Shown: positions 20,112-28,643 of the stretch, piece by piece
Position numbering within the stretch: the first letter of the stretch is position 1
Layout: each line of letters begins with the position of its first letter
Source of the DNA: Methanothrix sp.
GTDB lineage: Archaea > Halobacteriota > Methanosarcinia > Methanotrichales > Methanotrichaceae
DNA: 32,341 nt
Assembly: GCA_040770465.1 (NCBI GenBank)
Contig: JAXGJB010000035.1
Span: 1 to 32,341 of the forward strand
Reading direction: 5' to 3'
Notes under the pieces: model-generated
Told to the model about the DNA's origin: nothing
The model's database searches: none
What the model saw: the letters and a program-made list of their open reading frames with translations, nothing else
Program-made: the position numbers and the translations under genes

Positions 20112-23100
20112 TCACCGGGTGGCGTCCTCGACGATGGCGATCTCCTCCGCCGTCAGCCCGTAAAGCTCGTAGACGAGACTGTCGATCTGCCGATCGGTCG
20201 CCTCGATCTGCCGCGAGAGGAGGGTCTTCTCGTGGCCGGTCTTCGTCTCCGCCAGCCGCCGGTGCAGGTCCAGCATATTCTCGACGAGCTTCACCATCCG
20301 ATCGTGGCGGGCCTTTTCGGACGAATTATTTAAGTCGATGTTTGGAACAGGAAATTTCTCCAAGGTATTCGCGTTGATTTTTGGAAATGCAGCTCTGTCA
20401 AGGTTCACATTCTGACTCTTTAAATGGCTAAAACATGGGCGTGATAAAATTATACCCACAAAAAAGAAAATATTCAGAGATCTGGTATAAGTAAAACTAA
20501 ATTTTGGTATCAATGTAATTACATCGGTGTTGCATATATACGGGTTTTCGGTGAAGGTCCCATCTAAACAGTTGCCCGATGCGATACGCCTAATAAGTAT
20601 TCTTGGACCTACGAAGATTTCGGGATTTCGAGGTGCAGCGAGATTTTCACCATATTTGATCCAATCCTCCTCCCATTCAAGACTATACCGCTTTATGTTT
20701 CTGGCACGCAACAATGGGAGATAGCTATCATCAAGCTTTTCTTTTGAGTCATATATTTTTTGAATCATCATATTCCTGGTTTGGGGAGGATATCCTTTTC
20801 CCTCTTCATAGGGTTTCATTCCAAATTTGAAAATAAAATATTCTTTGAGTACAGAATTACCTTGTAATTTGGATGATTTAGAGAAGCTAATCCTAACATC
20901 TTGATTTTTGGATTCAATACTATAATTCTCGTCATATGCCCAGTTCTTGTTTTTGACAGCTAATAACCTTTCAGCTATCGCTTTTAACGATCGATCTATT
21001 CCTTTAATCATACAATTCTTCGGAAACTTATTCGTACTATCTTTCTCTGCTATTACAATCAAGGTATCGACAGTTACATTCTCAAAAACCTGATATACAT
21101 TTAAAAGTTCGTATACATTATTCTTTATGAATAAGAATTCGCGTAATTTATTGTCGAAATCTGTCGAAAGCCAGTAATTAGGTACAATCATCCCGAGCCT
21201 ACCGTCACGATTTAACAACTTAACCGCTTTCTCCAAAAATAGGCCATATGTGTTTAGTTGATACTCAGCAGTTCCAAATTTATCCTGATAATAGCTCTTA
21301 TCGAATTTCTCTAAAAGTCCTGATCGGGACTGTATATAAGGCGGATTCCCGATCACAGCATTGAACCCGCCCCGGCTCATGATCTCGGGAAACTCCATCT
21401 CCCAGTCGAAGGGGTTGATCCTCTCGATCTCCTCCTCGCTCATACCGGGATTTGACTCCAGGATGTCCCACCCGATCAGCGAGTTACCGCACTTGACGTT
21501 CTCGCCCAGGTCGGGGAGCGCCCGCTCCTGGAAGAGCTTCAGCTGCTTGGAGAGGGTCTCCTCGCTCTCCCCCTCCAGGACCTTCAGGTGGAGGGAGAGC
21601 TTCGTCACCTCCACCGCCTGGGGGTCGATGTCCACGCCGTAGATGTTGTTCAGGAGGATCCGCTTTCTCTCCTCGGTCGTCAGCTTCCACTCGCCGCCCT
21701 TGGCCTGGAAGATGGGAAAGGGGCTCTCGTTCTCCTCGGCCTTTCCCTTCCTCGTCTTGTTTCCCCTCCTCGTTCCAGCCCCGGAGGCAGCGCCGCCGCC
21801 GGGCAGAAGGGCGGCGACCTCCTTCGAGGTGGCTGGCCGGCCTGTCTCCAGGAGGGGGACGAGCTTCTCGACGTACCAGTCCCGGTGCCAGTCCAGAAGC
21901 TTCTGGTACGCGCCGATGAGAAATGATCCTGAGCCGCAGGCGGGATCGAGGATGCGGAGGTCTGAGGCGGCGGCGGGGGTCTGCCCTTCGAGGAGCTTTC
22001 CGACGGTGTTCTCGACGATGTACTCCACGATGTACGCCGGGGTGTAGTAGACGCCTCCCGCCTTCCTCACCTCGGGCTTGTACTCCACCTTCGCCCGATG
22101 CCCCGGAGTCAGGCTGATCACCTTCCCCAGGAACTGCTCGTAGACCTGCCCCAGAATCTCCGGCGGGACGACCGAGAACTCGTAGGGGCTGTCGGGATAG
22201 TAGAGATCTTTTATGATCTCTTTGAGGATCTTGTCGTCGATAACGAGGCTCGGGGTCAGCTCGTCGGGCGGCTCCTTGCGGGCCGGGTCGTCGGCGAAGG
22301 CGAAGAGGCCGGAGTTGTACCGCTCGTCGGCCCGCAGGAATAGCTCGACGAGCCTCGGGTAGACCCGGGGGCCTTCAAGGAGGGACTGGAGCCACCCGTA
22401 CTTCTCGATCCCCCGATCCTCGCAGATCCGGAGGAAGACGATCCGATCGATCGTCCGCTGGACGGCGAAGTTCAGCTCCCGGGTGGTGAGGTCGGGATTC
22501 CGGAGCGCGATGTTTCGCGCCAGCTGGTCCCTCCAGCTCTCGATGTCCTTCAGGAAGGCGGCGTCCACCTCCGCCGTCCCCCGTTTCGCCCTGGTCGACT
22601 CGACGTACCGGTCGAAAGAGCCCTTCAGCACCTCCTCCCGCGAGAAGATCGAGGCGATCTCGTCCCACCGGTCGACGTACTCCTTGTAGGTGAGGTACTT
22701 GACCCGGGCCTTCGACGCCTTGTCGCTTTTCTCCGGCTTGATCCTGCCGTCGTAGACCGCCAGCTCCTCGAAGTCGGTCAGAATCCCCAGGGGAAGATGT
22801 TTTGCAGACCAGGAGTAGCGGCGGAGCTGGAAGGCCGGGCTGATCTCGTCTTTGAGGTTGACAGAGGGCTTCTTCGCCTCGACGAAGAACTTCCGGACGC
22901 CCCCGATCCTAAAACAGTAGTCGGGAGCCTTGACGGTCGACCCCACCTTTATGGCGTCCTCGTGGACCACGTCCTTGTACGCCTCGGCGTATCCCCGCTC
23001 GTTGTCCACGTCCCAGCCCAGGGCCTTGAAGAACGGGTCGATGAACTCCCGCCGCAGCTGGGTCTCGTTGTACCGTCCCGATCGGTAGGATTCGACGTTC

Positions 23101-23147
23101 CTCTCGAACCGCTCCACCAGCTCCTCGATCTCCCTGGGCGCCGCCAA
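20112..23147 (-). CDS. Type IIG restriction-modification enzyme (REase + N6-adenine MTase + TaqI-like C-terminal specificity domain)
   Basis: N-terminal PD...EAK nuclease (APDY..FFVEAKKP), GVYYTP, motif I ILDPACGSGSF, motif IV GNPPY, and terminal ID.LVYELYGLT.EEI helix. Confidence 0.93.
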   Translation of the reverse strand: MAAPREIEELVERFERNVESYRSGRYNETQLRREFIDPFFKALGWDVDNERGYAEAYKDVVHEDAIKVGSTVKAPDYCFRIGGVRKFFVEAKKPSVNLKDEISPAFQLRRYSWSAKHLPLGILTDFEELAVYDGRIKPEKSDKASKARVKYLTYKEYVDRWDEIASIFSREEVLKGSFDRYVESTRAKRGTAEVDAAFLKDIESWRDQLARNIALRNPDLTTRELNFAVQRTIDRIVFLRICEDRGIEKYGWLQSLLEGPRVYPRLVELFLRADERYNSGLFAFADDPARKEPPDELTPSLVIDDKILKEIIKDLYYPDSPYEFSVVPPEILGQVYEQFLGKVISLTPGHRAKVEYKPEVRKAGGVYYTPAYIVEYIVENTVGKLLEGQTPAAASDLRILDPACGSGSFLIGAYQKLLDWHRDWYVEKLVPLLETGRPATSKEVAALLPGGGAASGAGTRRGNKTRKGKAEENESPFPIFQAKGGEWKLTTEERKRILLNNIYGVDIDPQAVEVTKLSLHLKVLEGESEETLSKQLKLFQERALPDLGENVKCGNSLIGWDILESNPGMSEEEIERINPFDWEMEFPEIMSRGGFNAVIGNPPYIQSRSGLLEKFDKSYYQDKFGTAEYQLNTYGLFLEKAVKLLNRDGRLGMIVPNYWLSTDFDNKLREFLFIKNNVYELLNVYQVFENVTVDTLIVIAEKDSTNKFPKNCMIKGIDRSLKAIAERLLAVKNKNWAYDENYSIESKNQDVRISFSKSSKLQGNSVLKEYFIFKFGMKPYEEGKGYPPQTRNMMIQKIYDSKEKLDDSYLPLLRARNIKRYSLEWEEDWIKYGENLAAPRNPEIFVGPRILIRRIASGNCLDGTFTENPYICNTDVITLIPKFSFTYTRSLNIFFFVGIILSRPCFSHLKSQNVNLDRAAFPKINANTLEKFPVPNIDLNNSSEKARHDRMVKLVENMLDLHRRLAETKTGHEKTLLSRQIEATDRQIDSLVYELYGLTAEEIAIVEDATR

Positions 23148-23272
23148 CTCTTCTTCCTCCGCCTTCAGATCCGCAGATCAAAGGATAAAATTGTCGGATG
23201 AAGGCCGAGGCAGGGAGATGAGATCGAAATGAAGGAAAAACAGATGGGGAAAACGGTAATAGAAGTTAAAGG

Positions 23273-23312
23273 GTCCAAGGTCCGCCTGAGGGTTCAGGCG
23301 GTGATCTTGGAC
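23273..23312. other. Inverted repeat/hairpin spanning the stop codon of DUF1699 copy A
   Basis: GTCCAAG-gt-CCGCCTGA-gggt-TCAGGCGG-tgat-CTTGGAC. Confidence 0.8.
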
Positions 23313-23701
23313 TTGGCGATGTACTTGATCAGGTCGGGGGCGAGCCTCGTCTTCCTCTGGATCGTGGCGGCCGCATCCTCTATGCTCTCGCCTTCCTTGA
23401 TGAGGTTGCCGATCTCCTCGATCGCCTCTTCGTCTACGACGTAGTACTCGTCGATGTCTTTTCTGTGTCCCCAGACGTCGCCCTCCAGAAGGTCGATCCC
23501 CTGCATCTCGAGGAAGAGCTTGATCGCCTTGGACATGGTCTTGTGGTAGGATGGCGGAACCTGTACGGCCCTCAGCCTCGGGCAGCTTCTCATCAGGTCG
23601 AGGAAGTCGACGTTCGAGGGCCTGAAGGCCAGGTGGACGATCCTCTCGTTCGGGTTCAGCTCACTGATCTCGTCTTTTGAACTCACAACTCTAATTCTCA
23701 T
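23294..23701 (-). CDS. DUF1699-family protein (copy A)
   Basis: RVVSSK.EI..LN.NE..VHLAFRPSN...CP.L...EGDVWGHRKDI.EYY signature, 135 aa. Confidence 0.9.
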   Translation of the reverse strand: MRIRVVSSKDEISELNPNERIVHLAFRPSNVDFLDLMRSCPRLRAVQVPPSYHKTMSKAIKLFLEMQGIDLLEGDVWGHRKDIDEYYVVDEEAIEEIGNLIKEGESIEDAAATIQRKTRLAPDLIKYIAKSKITA

Positions 23702-23739
23702 GCAAATTCACCTCAACAAATACTAGGATGTAAATTCAA

Positions 23740-23770
23740 GTATTAATAGTCAATTGCGTTGTATACTAAC
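23740..23770 (-). promoter_or_regulatory. Promoter (TATA/BRE-like) plus conserved GTTAGTATAC box, DUF1699 copy A
   Basis: Plus strand GTATTAATAGTCAATT, then GTATACTAAC starting 21 nt further on; same spacing as copy B. Confidence 0.65.
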
Positions 23771-24154
23771 GTCCAGATTGAACGCAAATTCGATGATGAT
23801 GGGCTTGTAGCACGTTCTCCAGATGGACAGATCCGACCTCTTCTATCCCAAAAGATCCCATCTTCTCACTCTGATCTTGCGAGATTAAAGTGTCTGGTGG
23901 CCAAGTTCACAATCAAATCCTTTTCTCAATCGGTCCAGCCCAGGAGATGGGAGGGATCTCCAAAGGAAGCTCTGCCTGCGGATTCGATGGGGTTGGAGAT
24001 AATTCTCAAAGAGAGCGGGCTGAGCGCGTGGCCGGCCTCGGGACGGGATGGATGACTGATCTCAGAATGGATCAGATAATGGTGCCAAGAAAAGGGTTGG
24101 GGGTTGAAGTTGAGAAAAGCGCCAGCGATCGGGCATCAATTTCGAACTTCGAGA

Positions 24155-24198
24155 AGGTTTGAGGACCGCCTGAGGTTTCAGGCGGTGATCTTGGACCT
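24155..24198. other. Inverted repeat/hairpin spanning the stop codon of DUF1699 copy B
   Basis: AGGTTTGAG-g-ACCGCCTGA-ggtt-TCAGGCGGT-gat-CTTGGACCT. Confidence 0.8.
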
Positions 24199-24585
24199 GG
24201 CGATGTACTTGATCAGGTCGGGAGCAAGCCTCGTCTTCCTCTGGATCGCGGCCGTCGCATCCTCGATGCTCTCTCCCCCTTTGATCAGGGTTCCTATCTC
24301 GTCGATCGCCTCTTCATCGACTACGTAGTACTCGTCGATGTCCTTTCTGTGACCCCAGACGTCCCCTTCAAGGAGGGTGATCCCCTGCATCTCCAGGAAG
24401 AGCGTGATCGCCCGGGAGAGGGTCTTGTGGTAGGATGGGGGCACCTGGACGGTTCTCAGCCGCGGGCACGCCCTGATCAGGTCGAGGAAGTCGACGTTCG
24501 AGGGCCTGAAGGCCAGGTGGACGTTCCTCTCGTTCGAACCGAGCTTTGATATCTCCTCTTTTGAGCTGACTACTCTTATCTTCAT
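24178..24585 (-). CDS. DUF1699-family protein (copy B)
   Basis: Same signature, 135 aa. Confidence 0.9.
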   Translation of the reverse strand: MKIRVVSSKEEISKLGSNERNVHLAFRPSNVDFLDLIRACPRLRTVQVPPSYHKTLSRAITLFLEMQGITLLEGDVWGHRKDIDEYYVVDEEAIDEIGTLIKGGESIEDATAAIQRKTRLAPDLIKYIARSKITA

Positions 24586-24622
24586 GGTCTTTCACCTTTA
24601 CAATTGCTGATCTGTTATCAAA

Positions 24623-24653
24623 GTATTTATAGTCACTTACGATGTATACTAAC
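24623..24653 (-). promoter_or_regulatory. Promoter plus GTTAGTATAC box, DUF1699 copy B
   Basis: Plus strand GTATTTATAGTCACTT...GTATACTAAC. Confidence 0.65.
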
Positions 24654-24939
24654 TCCCATATTGCTTTTGTTCCATGATAACAGGTTGCATGGGGCATCGA
24701 ACCCATGCTGGATAATCTCGTTCTATTCCCAAAATCAGACCTCCTTTTATTCCGTCTTGCGCGATTAAAAGAGGCTCATCCGCCAAGCCGAACTCGGTCG
24801 GTCTCCATCACCACCGCCCTTCCGGCAGAGGCGGCGTCTCGGTGGAGGGAAGGGGATCGAAAAGAGGCACCGGGAAATTTCGAGGGAGGGCCGCAACGTA
24901 CAAATGTATATGGACGGCCCACCCGGCGAGGCCGAAATC

Positions 24940-24982
24940 GGGTCAAAGTCCGCCTGAGGTTTCAGGCGGTGATCTTGGACTT
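24940..24982. other. Inverted repeat/hairpin spanning the stop codon of DUF1699 copy C
   Basis: GGGTCAAAG-t-CCGCCTGA-ggtt-TCAGGCGG-tgat-CTTGGACTT. Confidence 0.8.
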
Positions 24983-25369
24983 GGCGATGTACCTGATCAG
25001 ATCGGCAGCCAGCCTCGTCTTCTTCATGATCTGGTCTGCAGTATCGTCGATGCTCACGCCGCTGGCGATCATCGTCTCGATCTCGCCGATCGTCTCATCG
25101 TCGACCATGTAGTACTCGTCGATGTCCTTCCTGTGCCCCCAGACGTCCCCTTCGAGCAGCTCGATCCCCTGCATCTCCAGGAAGACCTTGATCGCCTTGG
25201 ACATGGTCTTGTGATAGGAGGGTGGAACCTGGATCGCCCGAAGGCGGGGACATCTCTTCATCAGGGAGAGAAAGTCCACGTTCGACGGCCTGAAGGCCAG
25301 ATGGACCATCCTCTCGTTCGGGTTAAGATCCGGTATCTCATTTTTTGAGCTAACAACTCTGATTTTCAT
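24962..25369 (-). CDS. DUF1699-family protein (copy C)
   Basis: Same signature, 135 aa. Confidence 0.9.
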   Translation of the reverse strand: MKIRVVSSKNEIPDLNPNERMVHLAFRPSNVDFLSLMKRCPRLRAIQVPPSYHKTMSKAIKVFLEMQGIELLEGDVWGHRKDIDEYYMVDDETIGEIETMIASGVSIDDTADQIMKKTRLAADLIRYIAKSKITA

Positions 25370-25406
25370 GACCTTTCACCTCAACAATTGCCAAGATGTA
25401 GTTCCG

Positions 25407-25422
25407 GTATTAATAGATACTT
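25407..25422 (-). promoter_or_regulatory. Promoter, DUF1699 copy C
   Basis: Plus strand GTATTAATAGATACTT, 38 nt from the ATG, as in copies A and B. Confidence 0.6.
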
Positions 25423-25631
25423 GTATAAACCTCATTGAAGGGAAATCGAAGCTCCACGATCTGGTGGGCGATTATAACAGGGATAAAGACATACCGGATG
25501 GATGGATGAAGATCCATCTGGCTCATCAAAAAGGGGGCAAGAAGTCAGCATCTGCCTGTCATCACCAAGGACGAGCAAAACCCGAGAAGAGGGGGTGAAG
25601 GAGGCCTCCGCTCCTCGTCCCATTCATCATT

Positions 25632-26039
25632 TCACGCTTGAACTTTGGATTTGGCTATATATTTGATCATGTCGGGGGCGAGCCTCGTCTTCTTCGTGAT
25701 CAGGTCGGCGGCCTCATCGATGCTCGCTCCCCCCGAGACCATGGTTTCGATCTCGCCGATCGTCTCGTCCTCGATCATGAAGTACTCGTCGATGTCCTTC
25801 CTGTGCCCCCAGACGTCCCCTTCCAATAGCTCGATCCCCTGCATCTCCAGGAAGAGCTCGATCGCCTTGGACATGGTCTTATGATAAGAGGGGGGAACCT
25901 GGATCGCCCGGAGCCGGGGGCATATCTTCATCAGGTTGAGGAGGTCGACGTTTGAGGCCCTGAAGGCCAGATGAACTATCCTCTCGTTTGGGTTCAGGCT
26001 GGTTATCTCATTTTTTGAGCTCACAACTCTAACTCTCAT
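25632..26039 (-). CDS. DUF1699-family protein (copy D)
   Basis: Same signature, 135 aa, with a divergent C-terminus (KVQA). Confidence 0.9.
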   Translation of the reverse strand: MRVRVVSSKNEITSLNPNERIVHLAFRASNVDLLNLMKICPRLRAIQVPPSYHKTMSKAIELFLEMQGIELLEGDVWGHRKDIDEYFMIEDETIGEIETMVSGGASIDEAADLITKKTRLAPDMIKYIAKSKVQA

Positions 26040-26070
26040 GAATCCTCACGACCGGCGAGATGAAAACAAA

Positions 26071-26101
26071 ATACTAATAGACACTTGTGGCGTTCACTAA
26101 T
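26071..26101 (-). promoter_or_regulatory. Promoter plus degenerate box, DUF1699 copy D
   Basis: Plus strand ATACTAATAGACACTT and GTTCACTAAT at the same +21 offset. Confidence 0.5.
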
Positions 26102-26642
26102 GTTCATATCCATATGCATCGACCTAAATCTTTCAATTCGGAGGTCCTGGATATCCCCGTTTATGCGGTCGTGGAGGACCATTCCGACGAAGATTTTGGG
26201 GTCTCAAATTCGTGGACGGAGGGCCAACTTCGCATAACAATTTCACGAAACTTCACAACCATTTAAATGACCGACTTCCGAAATGGCGGCCAAAGCCCGC
26301 AGGTAAGTCGCAGTCATCGATCCGAAAGAAAAGTCGGCACTTTGGATGCGGGGTTCCCATTAACGATCGATCCTGATGCGGTGGCGGGTTTCGCGTAGAT
26401 GCGCCCCTCCCGTCGAGTTTCCTCCTCCTCTTCCTTCCGGCTCATCCCCGGTCCCCCCATGCTCCAAAGTTCCCATCAAAAGGATGATAACGGGGCGGTC
26501 CAATAGACCCACGAATAGACCCAAGAAGCGATATGCAAGGGCCCTGAGGCGCTGGACCTCTTTCAATCTGCCGACCCCTCCACCAGGTTTAAATAAGTTA
26601 TAATAATCCCTCCTAGGAGAACGATCCAGGCTGGTAATCCTT

Positions 26643-26915
26643 ATGAACATTGACGAGATAGTCCGGTGGGTCCTCAGCGTAGATCGGCGCCTTCTCTTGA
26701 TGAGGACGATCCGAAATTCCAGGGTGGTTAAAGCATCCGAGGTGGCTCAGTTGACAGATAGATCGATCCAGAATATAAGCCGCGCATTGAAGGAGTGCGA
26801 AGAGCTGGACCTGGTCAGATGCATAACCCCCGAGAAGCATACCTGGAAGAAGTATATGCTCACCGATCTGGGACATGTCGTCTTGAGGGAGCTTGAAAGA
26901 TTCGAAATGATCTGA
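26643..26915 (+). CDS. Winged helix-turn-helix regulator (MarR/ArsR-like)
   Basis: ASEVAQLTDRSIQNISRALKECEELDLV...YMLTDLG wHTH pattern. Confidence 0.85.
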   Translation: MNIDEIVRWVLSVDRRLLLMRTIRNSRVVKASEVAQLTDRSIQNISRALKECEELDLVRCITPEKHTWKKYMLTDLGHVVLRELERFEMI

Positions 26916-26936
26916 CGGAATTAGAAGGTTGATCTC

Positions 26937-28643
26937 ATGAGTAAAGTAAGGCTTACGGAGACGGTTTTCAGAGATGCTCATCAATCACTGTTGGCCACCA
27001 GGATGAGGACGCGGGACATGCTCCCGATAGCAGAGAAGCTCGACGAGGTGGGCTTCTTCTCGATGGAGGTCTGGGGAGGCGCCACTTTTGACTCCTGTAT
27101 CAGATATCTCAACGAAGATCCCTGGGAGAGGCTGCGCGCCCTCAAGCTCGCCATGCCCAACACCCCCATGCAGATGCTCCTCCGGGGCCAGAACCTGGTA
27201 GGCTACCGCCACTACGCCGACGACCTGGTGGAGAAGTTCGTCGAGAGGGCGGCGGCAAACGGTGTTGACGTCTTTCGGATATTCGATGCAGTAAACGACA
27301 TCAGAAACATGCTCGTCGCCATCAAGGCCGCCAAGAAGACCGGCGCCCACGTCCAGGGCTCCGTCTGCTACACCACAAGCCCCGTCCATTCCATTGAGCA
27401 GTTCACCAGGATGGCGGCAGAGCTTGCCGACCTCGGCTGCGACTCCATCTGCATCAAGGACATGGCGGGGCTGATCCTCCCCCATGACGCCTATGATCTG
27501 GTTGCTTCGATGAAAGAGGCGGTCTCCGTCCCCATCTGCCTCCACTCTCACTGCACCAGCGGCATGGCCCCCATGAGCTTCATCTTCGCCTGCGAGGCGG
27601 GGGTCGACATCCTCGACACCGCCATATCCCCCCTGGGATGGGGGTCGTCCCATCCCCCCACCGAGAGCATCGTGGCGTCCCTGGTGGGGACCCCCTACGA
27701 GACGGGCCTCGACCTCAGGCTCTTGACCCAGATCAAGAGGTACTTCGAGAAGCTGATGGAGGTTTACGCCCCCGTCTTCAACCCCATCTCCGCTCGGGTC
27801 GACACCAACGTCCTCGTCTACCAGGTGCCGGGCGGCATGTTATCAAACCTCGTCTCCCAGCTGATCGAGCAGAAGGCCCTGGACAAGTACGACGAGGTTC
27901 TGGCGGAGATCCCGAGGGTGAGGGAAGACCTGGGGTACCCGCCCCTCGTCACCCCAACAAGCCAGATCGTGGGAAGCCAGGCGGTTCTGAACGTACTCAC
28001 CGGCGAGAGGTACAAGGCCGTACCCAAAGAGGTCAAAGATTACGTCAAGGGACTTTATGGCCGGTCGCCTGCAGAGATCAACCCCAAGATCAAGGCTGAG
28101 ATCCTGGAGGACGAGGAGCCGATAACCGTCAGGCCCGCGGACCTGATCCCCCTCGAGTACGAGAAGATGAAGGCTGAGGCGGAAGGGAAGGGGCTGGTCA
28201 GAACGGAGGAGGACATCCTCACCTACGCCCTCTACCCCCAGGTGGCGGAGAAGTTCCTCAAGGGCGAGGCGAAGGAGGAGGTCATGAAGAAGGCGGCTCC
28301 CTCGGAGGCCCAGGCCGCCGTCACCATCGGAAAGCCCGCCGCCTTCAACGTCGAGGTCGACGGCGAGGCTTATCTCGTCAAGGTAGCGCCGGCGGGGATG
28401 TCCATCGAGGCGGCTGAGCCGAAGGCCCCCAAGGACGGGGTTACCGTCCCGATGCAGGGGGTCATCATCCGCTATCAGGTGGCCAAAGGGGACAAGGTCT
28501 CCAAGGGGGACACCGTCGCCGTCCTCGAGGCGATGAAGATGGAGAACGACGTCTGCGCCAATAAAGACGGGGTCGTGGCGGAGATATACTCCGAGGTTGG
28601 GGCGACGGTATCTCCGGGCGACATATTGATGTCCATCGACTGA
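26937..28643 (+). CDS. pycB: Pyruvate carboxylase subunit B (carboxyltransferase + biotinyl domain; OadA-like)
   Basis: RDAHQSL, WGGATFD, IKDMAG, HSHCTSG, PGGM.SN and LVTPTSQIVG motifs; biotinylation motif EAMKM. Confidence 0.93.
   Translation: MSKVRLTETVFRDAHQSLLATRMRTRDMLPIAEKLDEVGFFSMEVWGGATFDSCIRYLNEDPWERLRALKLAMPNTPMQMLLRGQNLVGYRHYADDLVEKFVERAAANGVDVFRIFDAVNDIRNMLVAIKAAKKTGAHVQGSVCYTTSPVHSIEQFTRMAAELADLGCDSICIKDMAGLILPHDAYDLVASMKEAVSVPICLHSHCTSGMAPMSFIFACEAGVDILDTAISPLGWGSSHPPTESIVASLVGTPYETGLDLRLLTQIKRYFEKLMEVYAPVFNPISARVDTNVLVYQVPGGMLSNLVSQLIEQKALDKYDEVLAEIPRVREDLGYPPLVTPTSQIVGSQAVLNVLTGERYKAVPKEVKDYVKGLYGRSPAEINPKIKAEILEDEEPITVRPADLIPLEYEKMKAEAEGKGLVRTEEDILTYALYPQVAEKFLKGEAKEEVMKKAAPSEAQAAVTIGKPAAFNVEVDGEAYLVKVAPAGMSIEAAEPKAPKDGVTVPMQGVIIRYQVAKGDKVSKGDTVAVLEAMKMENDVCANKDGVVAEIYSEVGATVSPGDILMSID

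Follow-up and report, generated by a model that had tools for sequence, protein, structure and literature searches.

Four tandem DUF1699 paralogs with putative family-specific promoters in a Methanothrix genome are candidate stand-alone DNA-binding proteins

The 32,341-nucleotide stretch of Methanothrix sp. DNA analyzed here (GenBank assembly GCA_040770465.1, contig JAXGJB010000035.1, positions 1 to 32,341; hereafter the window) carries, between positions 23294 and 26039, four head-to-tail genes of the protein family DUF1699 (PF08004). To judge from its phylogeny, the array is old and stable and its copies have since followed separate evolutionary courses; each copy appears to be an independent unit with its own family-specific promoter. 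What might four such similar proteins be doing side by side? The explanation that we put forward, and that we consider about equally likely to be right or wrong, is that the DUF1699 paralogs are stand-alone helix-turn-helix (HTH)-like DNA-binding proteins that would be co-regulated, or would regulate themselves, at a private promoter. A large share of biogenic methane worldwide is made from acetate by Methanothrix/Methanocrinis and Methanosarcina, and many lineage-specific genes of these methanogens are still unexplained. New here are the finding that the array is conserved position by position, a confident two-domain structural model, and a DUF1699-specific promoter motif, which makes function directly testable.

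Results

Four full-length DUF1699 genes in tandem

All four open reading frames encode exactly 135 amino acids and lie on the minus strand, in the strand order D, C, B, A. The leading gene, copy D (25632-26039), matches PF08004 with an E-value of 1.8e-57; it is followed by copy C (24962-25369, E 1.6e-59), which occupies a dispensable position, by copy B (24178-24585, E 3.9e-56), and by the last and slowest-evolving gene, copy A (23294-23701, E 1.8e-60). The hidden Markov model (HMM) matches are full-length in all four genes (profile positions 1-129/130), scoring 188.8-202.7 bits where the gathering score is 33.4 bits, and the genes belong, as ordinary members, to a catalogued family without an assigned function. 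The initial annotation of this region, made from the sequence alone, had described four intact 135-residue genes arranged head-to-tail, and this holds, with spacers of 262, 376, and 476 bp. Its description of invariant blocks alternating with mostly C-terminal variable positions is likewise borne out: 86 of the 135 columns are invariant across the four copies, including the blocks VHLAFR, CPRLR, VPPSYHKT, and EGDVWGHRKDIDEY, and after residue 88 the density of variable columns (26/47) is about double that before it (23/88). The third helix of the C-terminal domain is almost identical among the four copies. Relative to copy A, protein identity is 86% for B, 79% for C, and 74% for D. The array is far beyond chance, because the same array recurs in ten related loci.

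The sequence around the genes has features of its own. The 13-15 nucleotides that directly follow the A, B, and C stop codons (23279-23293, 24163-24177, and 24947-24961) are alike, of the type AACCTCAGGCGG, and are conserved across species, and the duplicated unit therefore extends slightly beyond the stop codon. The B-A and C-B spacers share a T-run element (23869-23948 and 24712-24791, minus strand) with a pairwise identity of 0.53-0.72 across species; the one in the C-B spacer contains a hairpin with a T-run (24789-24773), and the element may be either a terminator or a remnant of the duplicated unit. Long open reading frames are also found on the plus strand antisense to the DUF1699 genes (23229-25884), e.g., 24705-25112 (135 residues) and 24842-25348 (168 residues), and they appear to be shadow frames arising from GC-rich coding sequence rather than genes.

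A promoter block specific to DUF1699 genes

Within the array, the stretches at -75..-1 relative to each ATG have an orthologue identity of 0.78-0.88, compared with 0.70-0.78 for codon third positions; identity falls to 0.49-0.54 in the -90..-76 stretch, and the spacer middles are poorly conserved (pairwise identity 0.05-0.5). The D promoter block (26040-26113, minus strand as for the other three) contains the 15-mer AAGTGTCTATTAGTA at 26072-26086, with an nhmmer E-value of 4.9e-15 and an orthologue identity of 0.83 versus 0.70 at codon position 3. Its counterpart before C (25370-25441, E 1.1e-12, 0.83 versus 0.78) has AAGTATCTATTAATA at 25408-25422. The B block (24586-24665, E 7.8e-15, 0.88 versus 0.72) combines ACTATAAATACT at 24622-24633 with an upstream element at 24643-24661, and the A block (23702-23782, E 8.8e-17, 0.78 versus 0.73) combines ACTATTAATACT at 23739-23750 with an upstream element at 23760-23778. 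When the whole genome was searched with the promoter-block profile, it matched only the four array copies and a solo paralog on contig C32. The TATA-like element that the initial annotation had assigned to each copy is indeed present as a CTATWAATA-type element before each ATG; it starts 34-48 nucleotides upstream and is accompanied by a GAGGTGA-type ribosome-binding site.

Across the Methanotrichaceae, a CTATWWDYA anchor is found in 107 of 113 DUF1699 upstream regions, 34-48 nucleotides (median 42) before the ATG, inside the near-invariant sequence AAGTGTCTATTAATA, which is preceded by a semi-conserved GTGTACA-like element. From the motif-to-ATG spacing we infer an archaeal promoter made up of a transcription factor B recognition element (BRE) and a TATA box, with a leader of ~5-20 nucleotides that would hold the GGAG/GGTG ribosome-binding site. 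The sequence GTCTATTA[AG]TA occurs twice in the genome, both times upstream of DUF1699. Allowing at most one mismatch, the 15-mer has 60 matches, in 26/26 family genomes, versus 6 for a reversed control, and the 19 of the 60 that could be compared with listed gene coordinates all lie 31-39 nucleotides upstream of a same-strand DUF1699 gene. The BRE/TATA-like 15-mer thus appears to occur almost only upstream of DUF1699 genes in this family. The upstream element ATATGGACGTTAGTATACA, at up to three mismatches, matches the A and B promoters alone, and therefore no wider regulon emerges from it. Sequences upstream of the paralogs on contigs C33 and C4 differ from the array promoter block, and the DUF1699 orthogroups of the Methanosarcinaceae carry conserved upstream blocks of their own. 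A scan for sigma-70 promoters and terminators stayed at background level, and Rfam returned only two sub-threshold snoRNA-like rows (E 0.56 and 0.85) on 23000-26700.

Age, selection, and copy number of the array

The ten related loci have 3-4 tandem DUF1699 copies. A maximum-likelihood tree was built of 40 copies, from which L016_1 (which holds X), L018_3 (a 263-residue read-through), and L019_2 (truncated) had been dropped. Copies group by array position and not by genome, with clade support of 100/98 for B (11 rows), 95/98 for C+D (15 rows), and 88/91 for the D subclade, and with A types on short basal branches. Because the copies cluster by position, the paralogs predate species divergence and have not been homogenized; they are older than the genus. 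The dosage amplification suggested in the initial annotation is therefore not borne out as a recent event. Nei-Gojobori ratios of nonsynonymous to synonymous substitution (dN/dS) among position-orthologues, at synonymous distances (dS) of 0.4-0.97, are 0.096 for D (45 pairs, ten orthologues), 0.152 for C (6 pairs, four intact orthologues), 0.130 for B (55 pairs), and 0.061 for A (45 pairs), consistent with purifying selection at all four positions. Neutral evolution of all but one copy, an outcome the initial annotation had allowed for, is not what is seen, with dN/dS of 0.06-0.15 at all four positions and RNA-library contigs on all four copies.

Position C is missing from 3-copy arrays, truncated in locus L019, and degenerate and on a long branch in L022. 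Between paralog groups there are only eight fixed differences, six of them in the C-terminal 47 residues. Longest-identical-run tests gave no robust sign of gene conversion: the D-C (P 0.022) and B-A (P 0.021) values are borderline and uncorrected for 6 pairs, and both runs fall within the most conserved protein blocks. Among all fetched loci, 18 DUF1699 loci adjoin pycB, with 1 or 2 copies in other Methanotrichaceae and 3-4 in the Methanocrinis / M. harundinacea clade. The presence of 1, 2, or 3-4 copies at pycB across these 18 loci indicates stepwise tandem duplication at one ancestral site.

A two-domain structural model

The monomer model called for in the initial annotation turned out to be a confident two-domain one. 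Built by AlphaFold2 for copy A from a 39-sequence alignment, it has a predicted local distance difference test score (pLDDT) of 95.6 and a predicted template modeling score (pTM) of 0.87. Residues 1-88 form a β-α-β-α-β-α-β domain that ends in the conserved EGDVWGHRKD loop, and residues 89-135 form three helices. In VIA-align, this C-terminal domain aligns with the phage G20C small terminase (Z 6.3, root-mean-square deviation (rmsd) 2.3, 47 residues aligned), the engrailed homeodomain (Z 5.9, rmsd 1.9, 48 aligned), and Mos1 (Z 5.8), and at lower rank with ISCth4, SETMAR, Tc3, and TnsB. Overall its matches to DNA-binding HTHs span Z 5.2-6.3 and rmsd 1.6-2.3 over 42-51 aligned residues, a range in which non-DNA-binding bundles score alike. 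For the N-terminal domain, VIA-align on the full model lists the DRTGG domain of AF1212 (Z 6.5, 83 aligned) and other small α/β modules; folded alone (pLDDT 89.8), the domain again has DRTGG at the top, at Z 6.6. None of the N-domain matches stands out, all having Z <7, 6-16% identity, and rmsd 2.5-4.

Foldseek searches of the PDB with the full model and the N-domain, and of BFVD, returned nothing at an E-value of 0.001 or better. Rows for the retroviral integrase core (TM about 0.3, rmsd 13-15) were dismissed as partial α/β overlap. In PDB profile searches the C-domain matches only designed helical repeats that have the common G-x-S-x-x-E-I helix cap, and the ESM Atlas gave no usable match to the N-domain. 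HTH_7 is outside the 25 most-matched families shown for 39 DUF1699 members; in one DUF1699 cluster of the ESM Atlas it is found on 27% of members.

RNA libraries

The sequences of all four copies are present in RNA libraries. Contigs at ≥95% identity from four metatranscriptome runs of a single anaerobic-digester study (run X5, 0.05 of sampled words, was left out) cover 23293-23540 over A, 24963-25375 over C, and 25514-26033 over D; B is covered at low depth in two of the four runs, by a contig at 24229-24352 with depth 3 in X1 and with depth also in X2. In these four runs no contig covers the spacer bins 23580-24123 and 24396-24939 or the stretch 26164-26950, which holds the adjacent winged-helix gene and the start of pycB, and none spans two DUF1699 genes, which does not bear on operon structure or silence.

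Distribution of the family

The closest public loci are from Methanothrix harundinacea, Candidatus Methanocrinis, and Methanotrichaceae, with 93-98% protein identity, and the genome is a member of the Methanocrinis / 'Methanothrix harundinacea' clade. At 2.54 Mb and 94.85% completeness it has nine PF08004 matches: the four array copies, a tight pair on contig C33, singles on C4 and C32, and a weak copy on C44. PF04409 (DUF530) has no match in this genome. The C33 pair (C33:24588-25489) belongs to a different DUF1699 subfamily, with its two genes 126 nucleotides apart, quite different upstream sequences, and the downstream copy on a long branch. The C44 copy (C44:5753-6136; L009 1435-1818) is divergent and consists of the DUF1699 N-domain only (E 5.8e-10) with a low-complexity acidic tail behind it, and it adjoins ftsZ and a winged helix-turn-helix (wHTH) gene.

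PF08004 is present in 38 of 41 relatives, including 15/15 same-genus genomes. In an even sample of the phylum, 63 of 301 genomes carry it, namely all genomes of four families (11/11, 47/47, 1/1, and 2/2) and one weak match, with no further family represented; each genome of those four families has at least 2 and up to 14 matches. The two large carrier families are presumably the Methanotrichaceae and the Methanosarcinaceae, the latter via the Methanosarcina acetivorans control, and within the sample PF08004 is found only in Methanosarcinales-type families. The family is small, with 251 clusters (50% identity) at E 0.001 among 1.84 billion representatives. N-domain-only variants and variants with other C-termini occur; among 15 longer members, a single coiled-coil fusion and a single weak match to UN_NPL4 are uninformative. 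All relatives among the 120 rows listed are named solely 'DUF1699 family protein' or 'hypothetical protein', and NCBIfam, PADLOC, and PHROGs gave no DUF1699 match. At the level of literature listings, text searches for 'DUF1699' or 'PF08004' returned merely FAM83-domain misprints or Plasmodium gene identifiers, and a search on Methanosarcinales signature proteins of unknown function returned nothing on DUF1699. The initial annotation was right that the family is uncharacterized and expanded in methanogens.

Genomic neighborhood

As the initial annotation had noted, the array is flanked by a restriction-modification (RM) gene and a divergent wHTH regulator, both of which we regard as context. 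The former (20112-23147, minus strand) encodes a 1011-residue type IIG restriction enzyme-methyltransferase with Pfam matches to Eco57I/N6_Mtase/MmeI and a PADLOC match to REase_MTase_IIG (E 2.8e-210). Of the 14 related loci that were searched, only L016 has a full-length relative (62% identity). At 23292/23293, exactly past the stop codon of A, the RNA-library contigs of related strains depart from the window sequence; since they do so and the RM gene is strain-variable, the downstream flank is a variable region, and the region after copy A is a hot spot of insertion or replacement.

On the other side, the wHTH gene (26643-26915, plus strand, 90 residues; weak HVO_A0261_N, HVO_A0114, and MarR_2 matches) lies 21 nucleotides before pycB (26937-28643), which encodes pyruvate carboxylase subunit B. 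Eight of the 10 array loci have an argB-pycB-wHTH block upstream of the array, the exceptions being L010 and L015. The wHTH gene is found in 11 of the 18 pycB-adjacent DUF1699 loci, is absent from the other 7, and, in the loci fetched, does not occur outside the Methanocrinis clade; it is probably a pycB-linked regulator that goes with pycB rather than with the array. It also has a weak match to the C-terminal wHTH of CARF3/Csa3-type PADLOC models (E 3.2e-07). Across 80 loci, DUF1699 neighbors are heterogeneous, including pycB, PAS histidine kinases, PCC-domain proteins, oxidoreductases, an integrase, and peptidases. Two old DUF1699 orthogroups with conserved synteny occur in four or five Methanosarcinaceae-type genera (L118-L127), one in the order Hel308-hisD-DUF1699-cobA-hemD and the other with DUF1699 / UPF0047 / unknown / RecJ-like DHH / NrpR-like / GPI (cupin-type) / UvrC; a GPI neighbor also recurs in 4 Methanothrix loci. 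These syntenies are housekeeping mixtures and not operons with a common theme. No partner gene of DUF1699 is conserved across the 80 loci or the Methanosarcinaceae-type syntenies.

Discussion

How would a small two-domain protein, present in several copies and preceded by a motif that appears nearly private to its family, be put to use? If the DUF1699 paralogs are stand-alone DNA-binding proteins, DNA would be bound through the C-terminal three-helix (HTH/homeodomain-like) domain, with the N-terminal α/β domain serving for oligomerization or ligand sensing. The DUF1699-only motif, AAGTGTCTATTAATA with the GTGTACA-like upstream element, would make the paralogs one co-regulated set, and in the simplest case DUF1699 proteins would bind their own core promoters, regulating themselves and each other. 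The main differences between the copies would then lie in the helix 1-2 surface and in details of the promoter, which could provide graded or condition-dependent dosage. The lack of a conserved partner gene is what is expected of stand-alone regulators. The nucleic-acid-binding or regulatory role proposed in the initial annotation is plausible to the extent that the C-terminal 47 residues form an HTH/homeodomain-like bundle in the model, but this bundle reaches Z-scores of just 5-6.3. Going further, these proteins might form a closed, self-wired paralog network peculiar to the Methanosarcinales, in which they would bind their own and sister promoters, possibly as mixed oligomers, and copy number and helix 1-2 surface differences would set a shared, tunable output; this we regard as a doubtful extension.

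Several observations weigh against the proposal of DNA-binding regulators. Every structural match has a VIA-align Z-score <8, a range in which a match may reflect a mere common arrangement, and three-helix bundles that do not bind DNA, those of RecX and designed proteins, score like the DNA-binding ones. Profile searches of the PDB, run for the whole protein and for each domain separately, identified no significant natural protein, and HTH_7 (PF02796), searched across the whole genome at E-values up to 10, gave 5 weak matches, none of them in a DUF1699 gene. The net charge of the protein, counted from its sequence, is acidic. A perfect inverted repeat of at least 5 nucleotides upstream of the TATA element is absent in 70 of 107 promoters, which makes the idea of a palindromic binding site weak. 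Not every copy is essential, because C is lost or degenerate in several genomes. The RNA-library contigs, all from one study, give neither strand, transcript ends, nor level, and could include DNA carry-over. Self-regulation is something that we infer and nothing more, and the motif could be read by another factor or by a special TATA-binding protein (TBP) or transcription factor B (TFB).

A bolder variant of the proposal concerns origin. In the model, the DUF1699 architecture is a parallel α/β domain, then a G-x-x-W-G-H-R-K arm, then a three-helix HTH-like bundle, and it might be viewed as a miniaturized, catalytically dead descendant of a serine-recombinase-type DNA-binding protein. A single hhalign alignment pairs GDVWGHRKD and the helices with the resolvase arm and HTH; against 6 archaeal resolvases the hhalign probability is 2.3%, with the N-domain unaligned. 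The resolvase catalytic HMM (PF00239) has no match in this genome or in any of the 15 same-genus genomes, all of which carry DUF1699. There is no invariant nucleophilic serine: many of the 39 members have N, T, H, A, K, D, or G in place of S7 and S8 of the VSS motif.

Could the array exist mainly for dosage? Were the proteins abundant architectural (nucleoid-associated) DNA-binding proteins, the array and a strong shared promoter would serve chiefly to raise their amount and the paralogs would be redundant. Proteins 74-86% identical with a near-identical third helix, merely 8 positions fixed differently between groups, a copy number that varies between 3 and 4 with C degenerate in L019 and L022, at least 2 and up to 14 matches in every family genome searched, and RNA-library contigs on all four genes are what such redundancy would look like. 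Redundant copies would be expected to be homogenized or lost, yet position-specific lineages persist at dN/dS 0.06-0.15, and gene conversion left no robust sign (P 0.021-0.022, uncorrected for 6 pairs); moreover, the protein is net acidic and the contigs carry no readable expression level. We consider this explanation unlikely. Similarly improbable in our view is a protein that does not bind DNA at all, with the N-domain acting as a small-molecule-binding, phosphotransfer-like, or protein-adaptor module and the C-terminal helices making protein contacts. It would explain why conservation is strongest in the N-domain, where H23, F26, and G74 are ≥90% conserved family-wide and the EGDVWGHRKD loop is conserved, and it accords with the N-domain-only and other-C-terminus variants and with the separate DUF1699_N family of Pfam 38.1. 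The nearest folds are regulatory or swivel α/β domains, i.e., DRTGG of AF1212 (Z 6.6, 83 aligned), the rifampin phosphotransferase swivel domain (Z 6.0), and CoA-binding-like domains, and leucine-rich-repeat proteins appear in BFVD at E 0.013. Set against this, the N-domain matches all stay at Z <7 with rmsd 2.5-4 and 6-16% identity, none of the candidate catalytic residues is strictly invariant in the 39 aligned members, and no enzyme or pathway partner is conserved nearby.

The initial annotation had proposed an undescribed system, which could be a multi-gene one tied to the RM gene or the wHTH regulator, such as a defense-related module. Physical adjacency in this window is what speaks for it. 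The RM gene has a full-length relative in 1/14 loci (L016, 62%), and the contigs of related strains diverge exactly past the stop codon of A; the wHTH gene sits 21 nucleotides from pycB and is missing from 7/18 pycB-adjacent loci; DUF1699 has no PADLOC or PHROGs match; and with neighbors heterogeneous across 80 loci there is no conserved partner gene. A linked system is largely refuted by these findings and we regard it as very improbable.

If DUF1699 proteins do bind the motif, they would constitute a new lineage-specific family of archaeal regulators and a compact example of cross-regulation among paralogs. If they do not, the motif would still mark an unusual, dedicated promoter class.

To what known proteins, then, can DUF1699 be compared? 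Within PF08004, accompanied in Pfam 38.1 by PF28505 (DUF1699_N), the array genes are plain full-length members and differ in nothing. The tri-helical HTHs of Mos1, Tc3, the phage G20C terminase, and HTH_7 superpose on DUF1699 residues 89-135 with rmsd 1.6-2.3, but there is no significant sequence match to them, the DUF1699 C-domain carries a net acidic charge, and the domain joined to it is not a recombinase or a transposase core. The best structural neighbor of the N-domain is DRTGG (AF1212, PDB 2ioj, and the regulatory region of a CBS-pyrophosphatase, 3l31; Z 6.5-6.6), which, like the DUF1699 N-domain, is a small α/β regulatory module of unclear function. However, at 7% identity and rmsd 3.5-3.6 it does not rise above unrelated α/β folds at Z 5-6, and the scan of 39 DUF1699 members gave no DRTGG Pfam match. 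In its manner of working, DUF1699 is reminiscent of the Lrp/AsnC-type feast/famine proteins, small two-domain archaeal one-component regulators that oligomerize and autoregulate. These combine a small HTH with an α/β domain, much as the DUF1699 model pairs an HTH-like bundle with one, and occur as multiple paralogs, and DUF1699 genes are stand-alone with promoters suggestive of autoregulation; unlike in Lrp/AsnC, to which neither sequence nor fold gave a match here, the domain order is opposite in DUF1699, and the α/β domain is unrelated.

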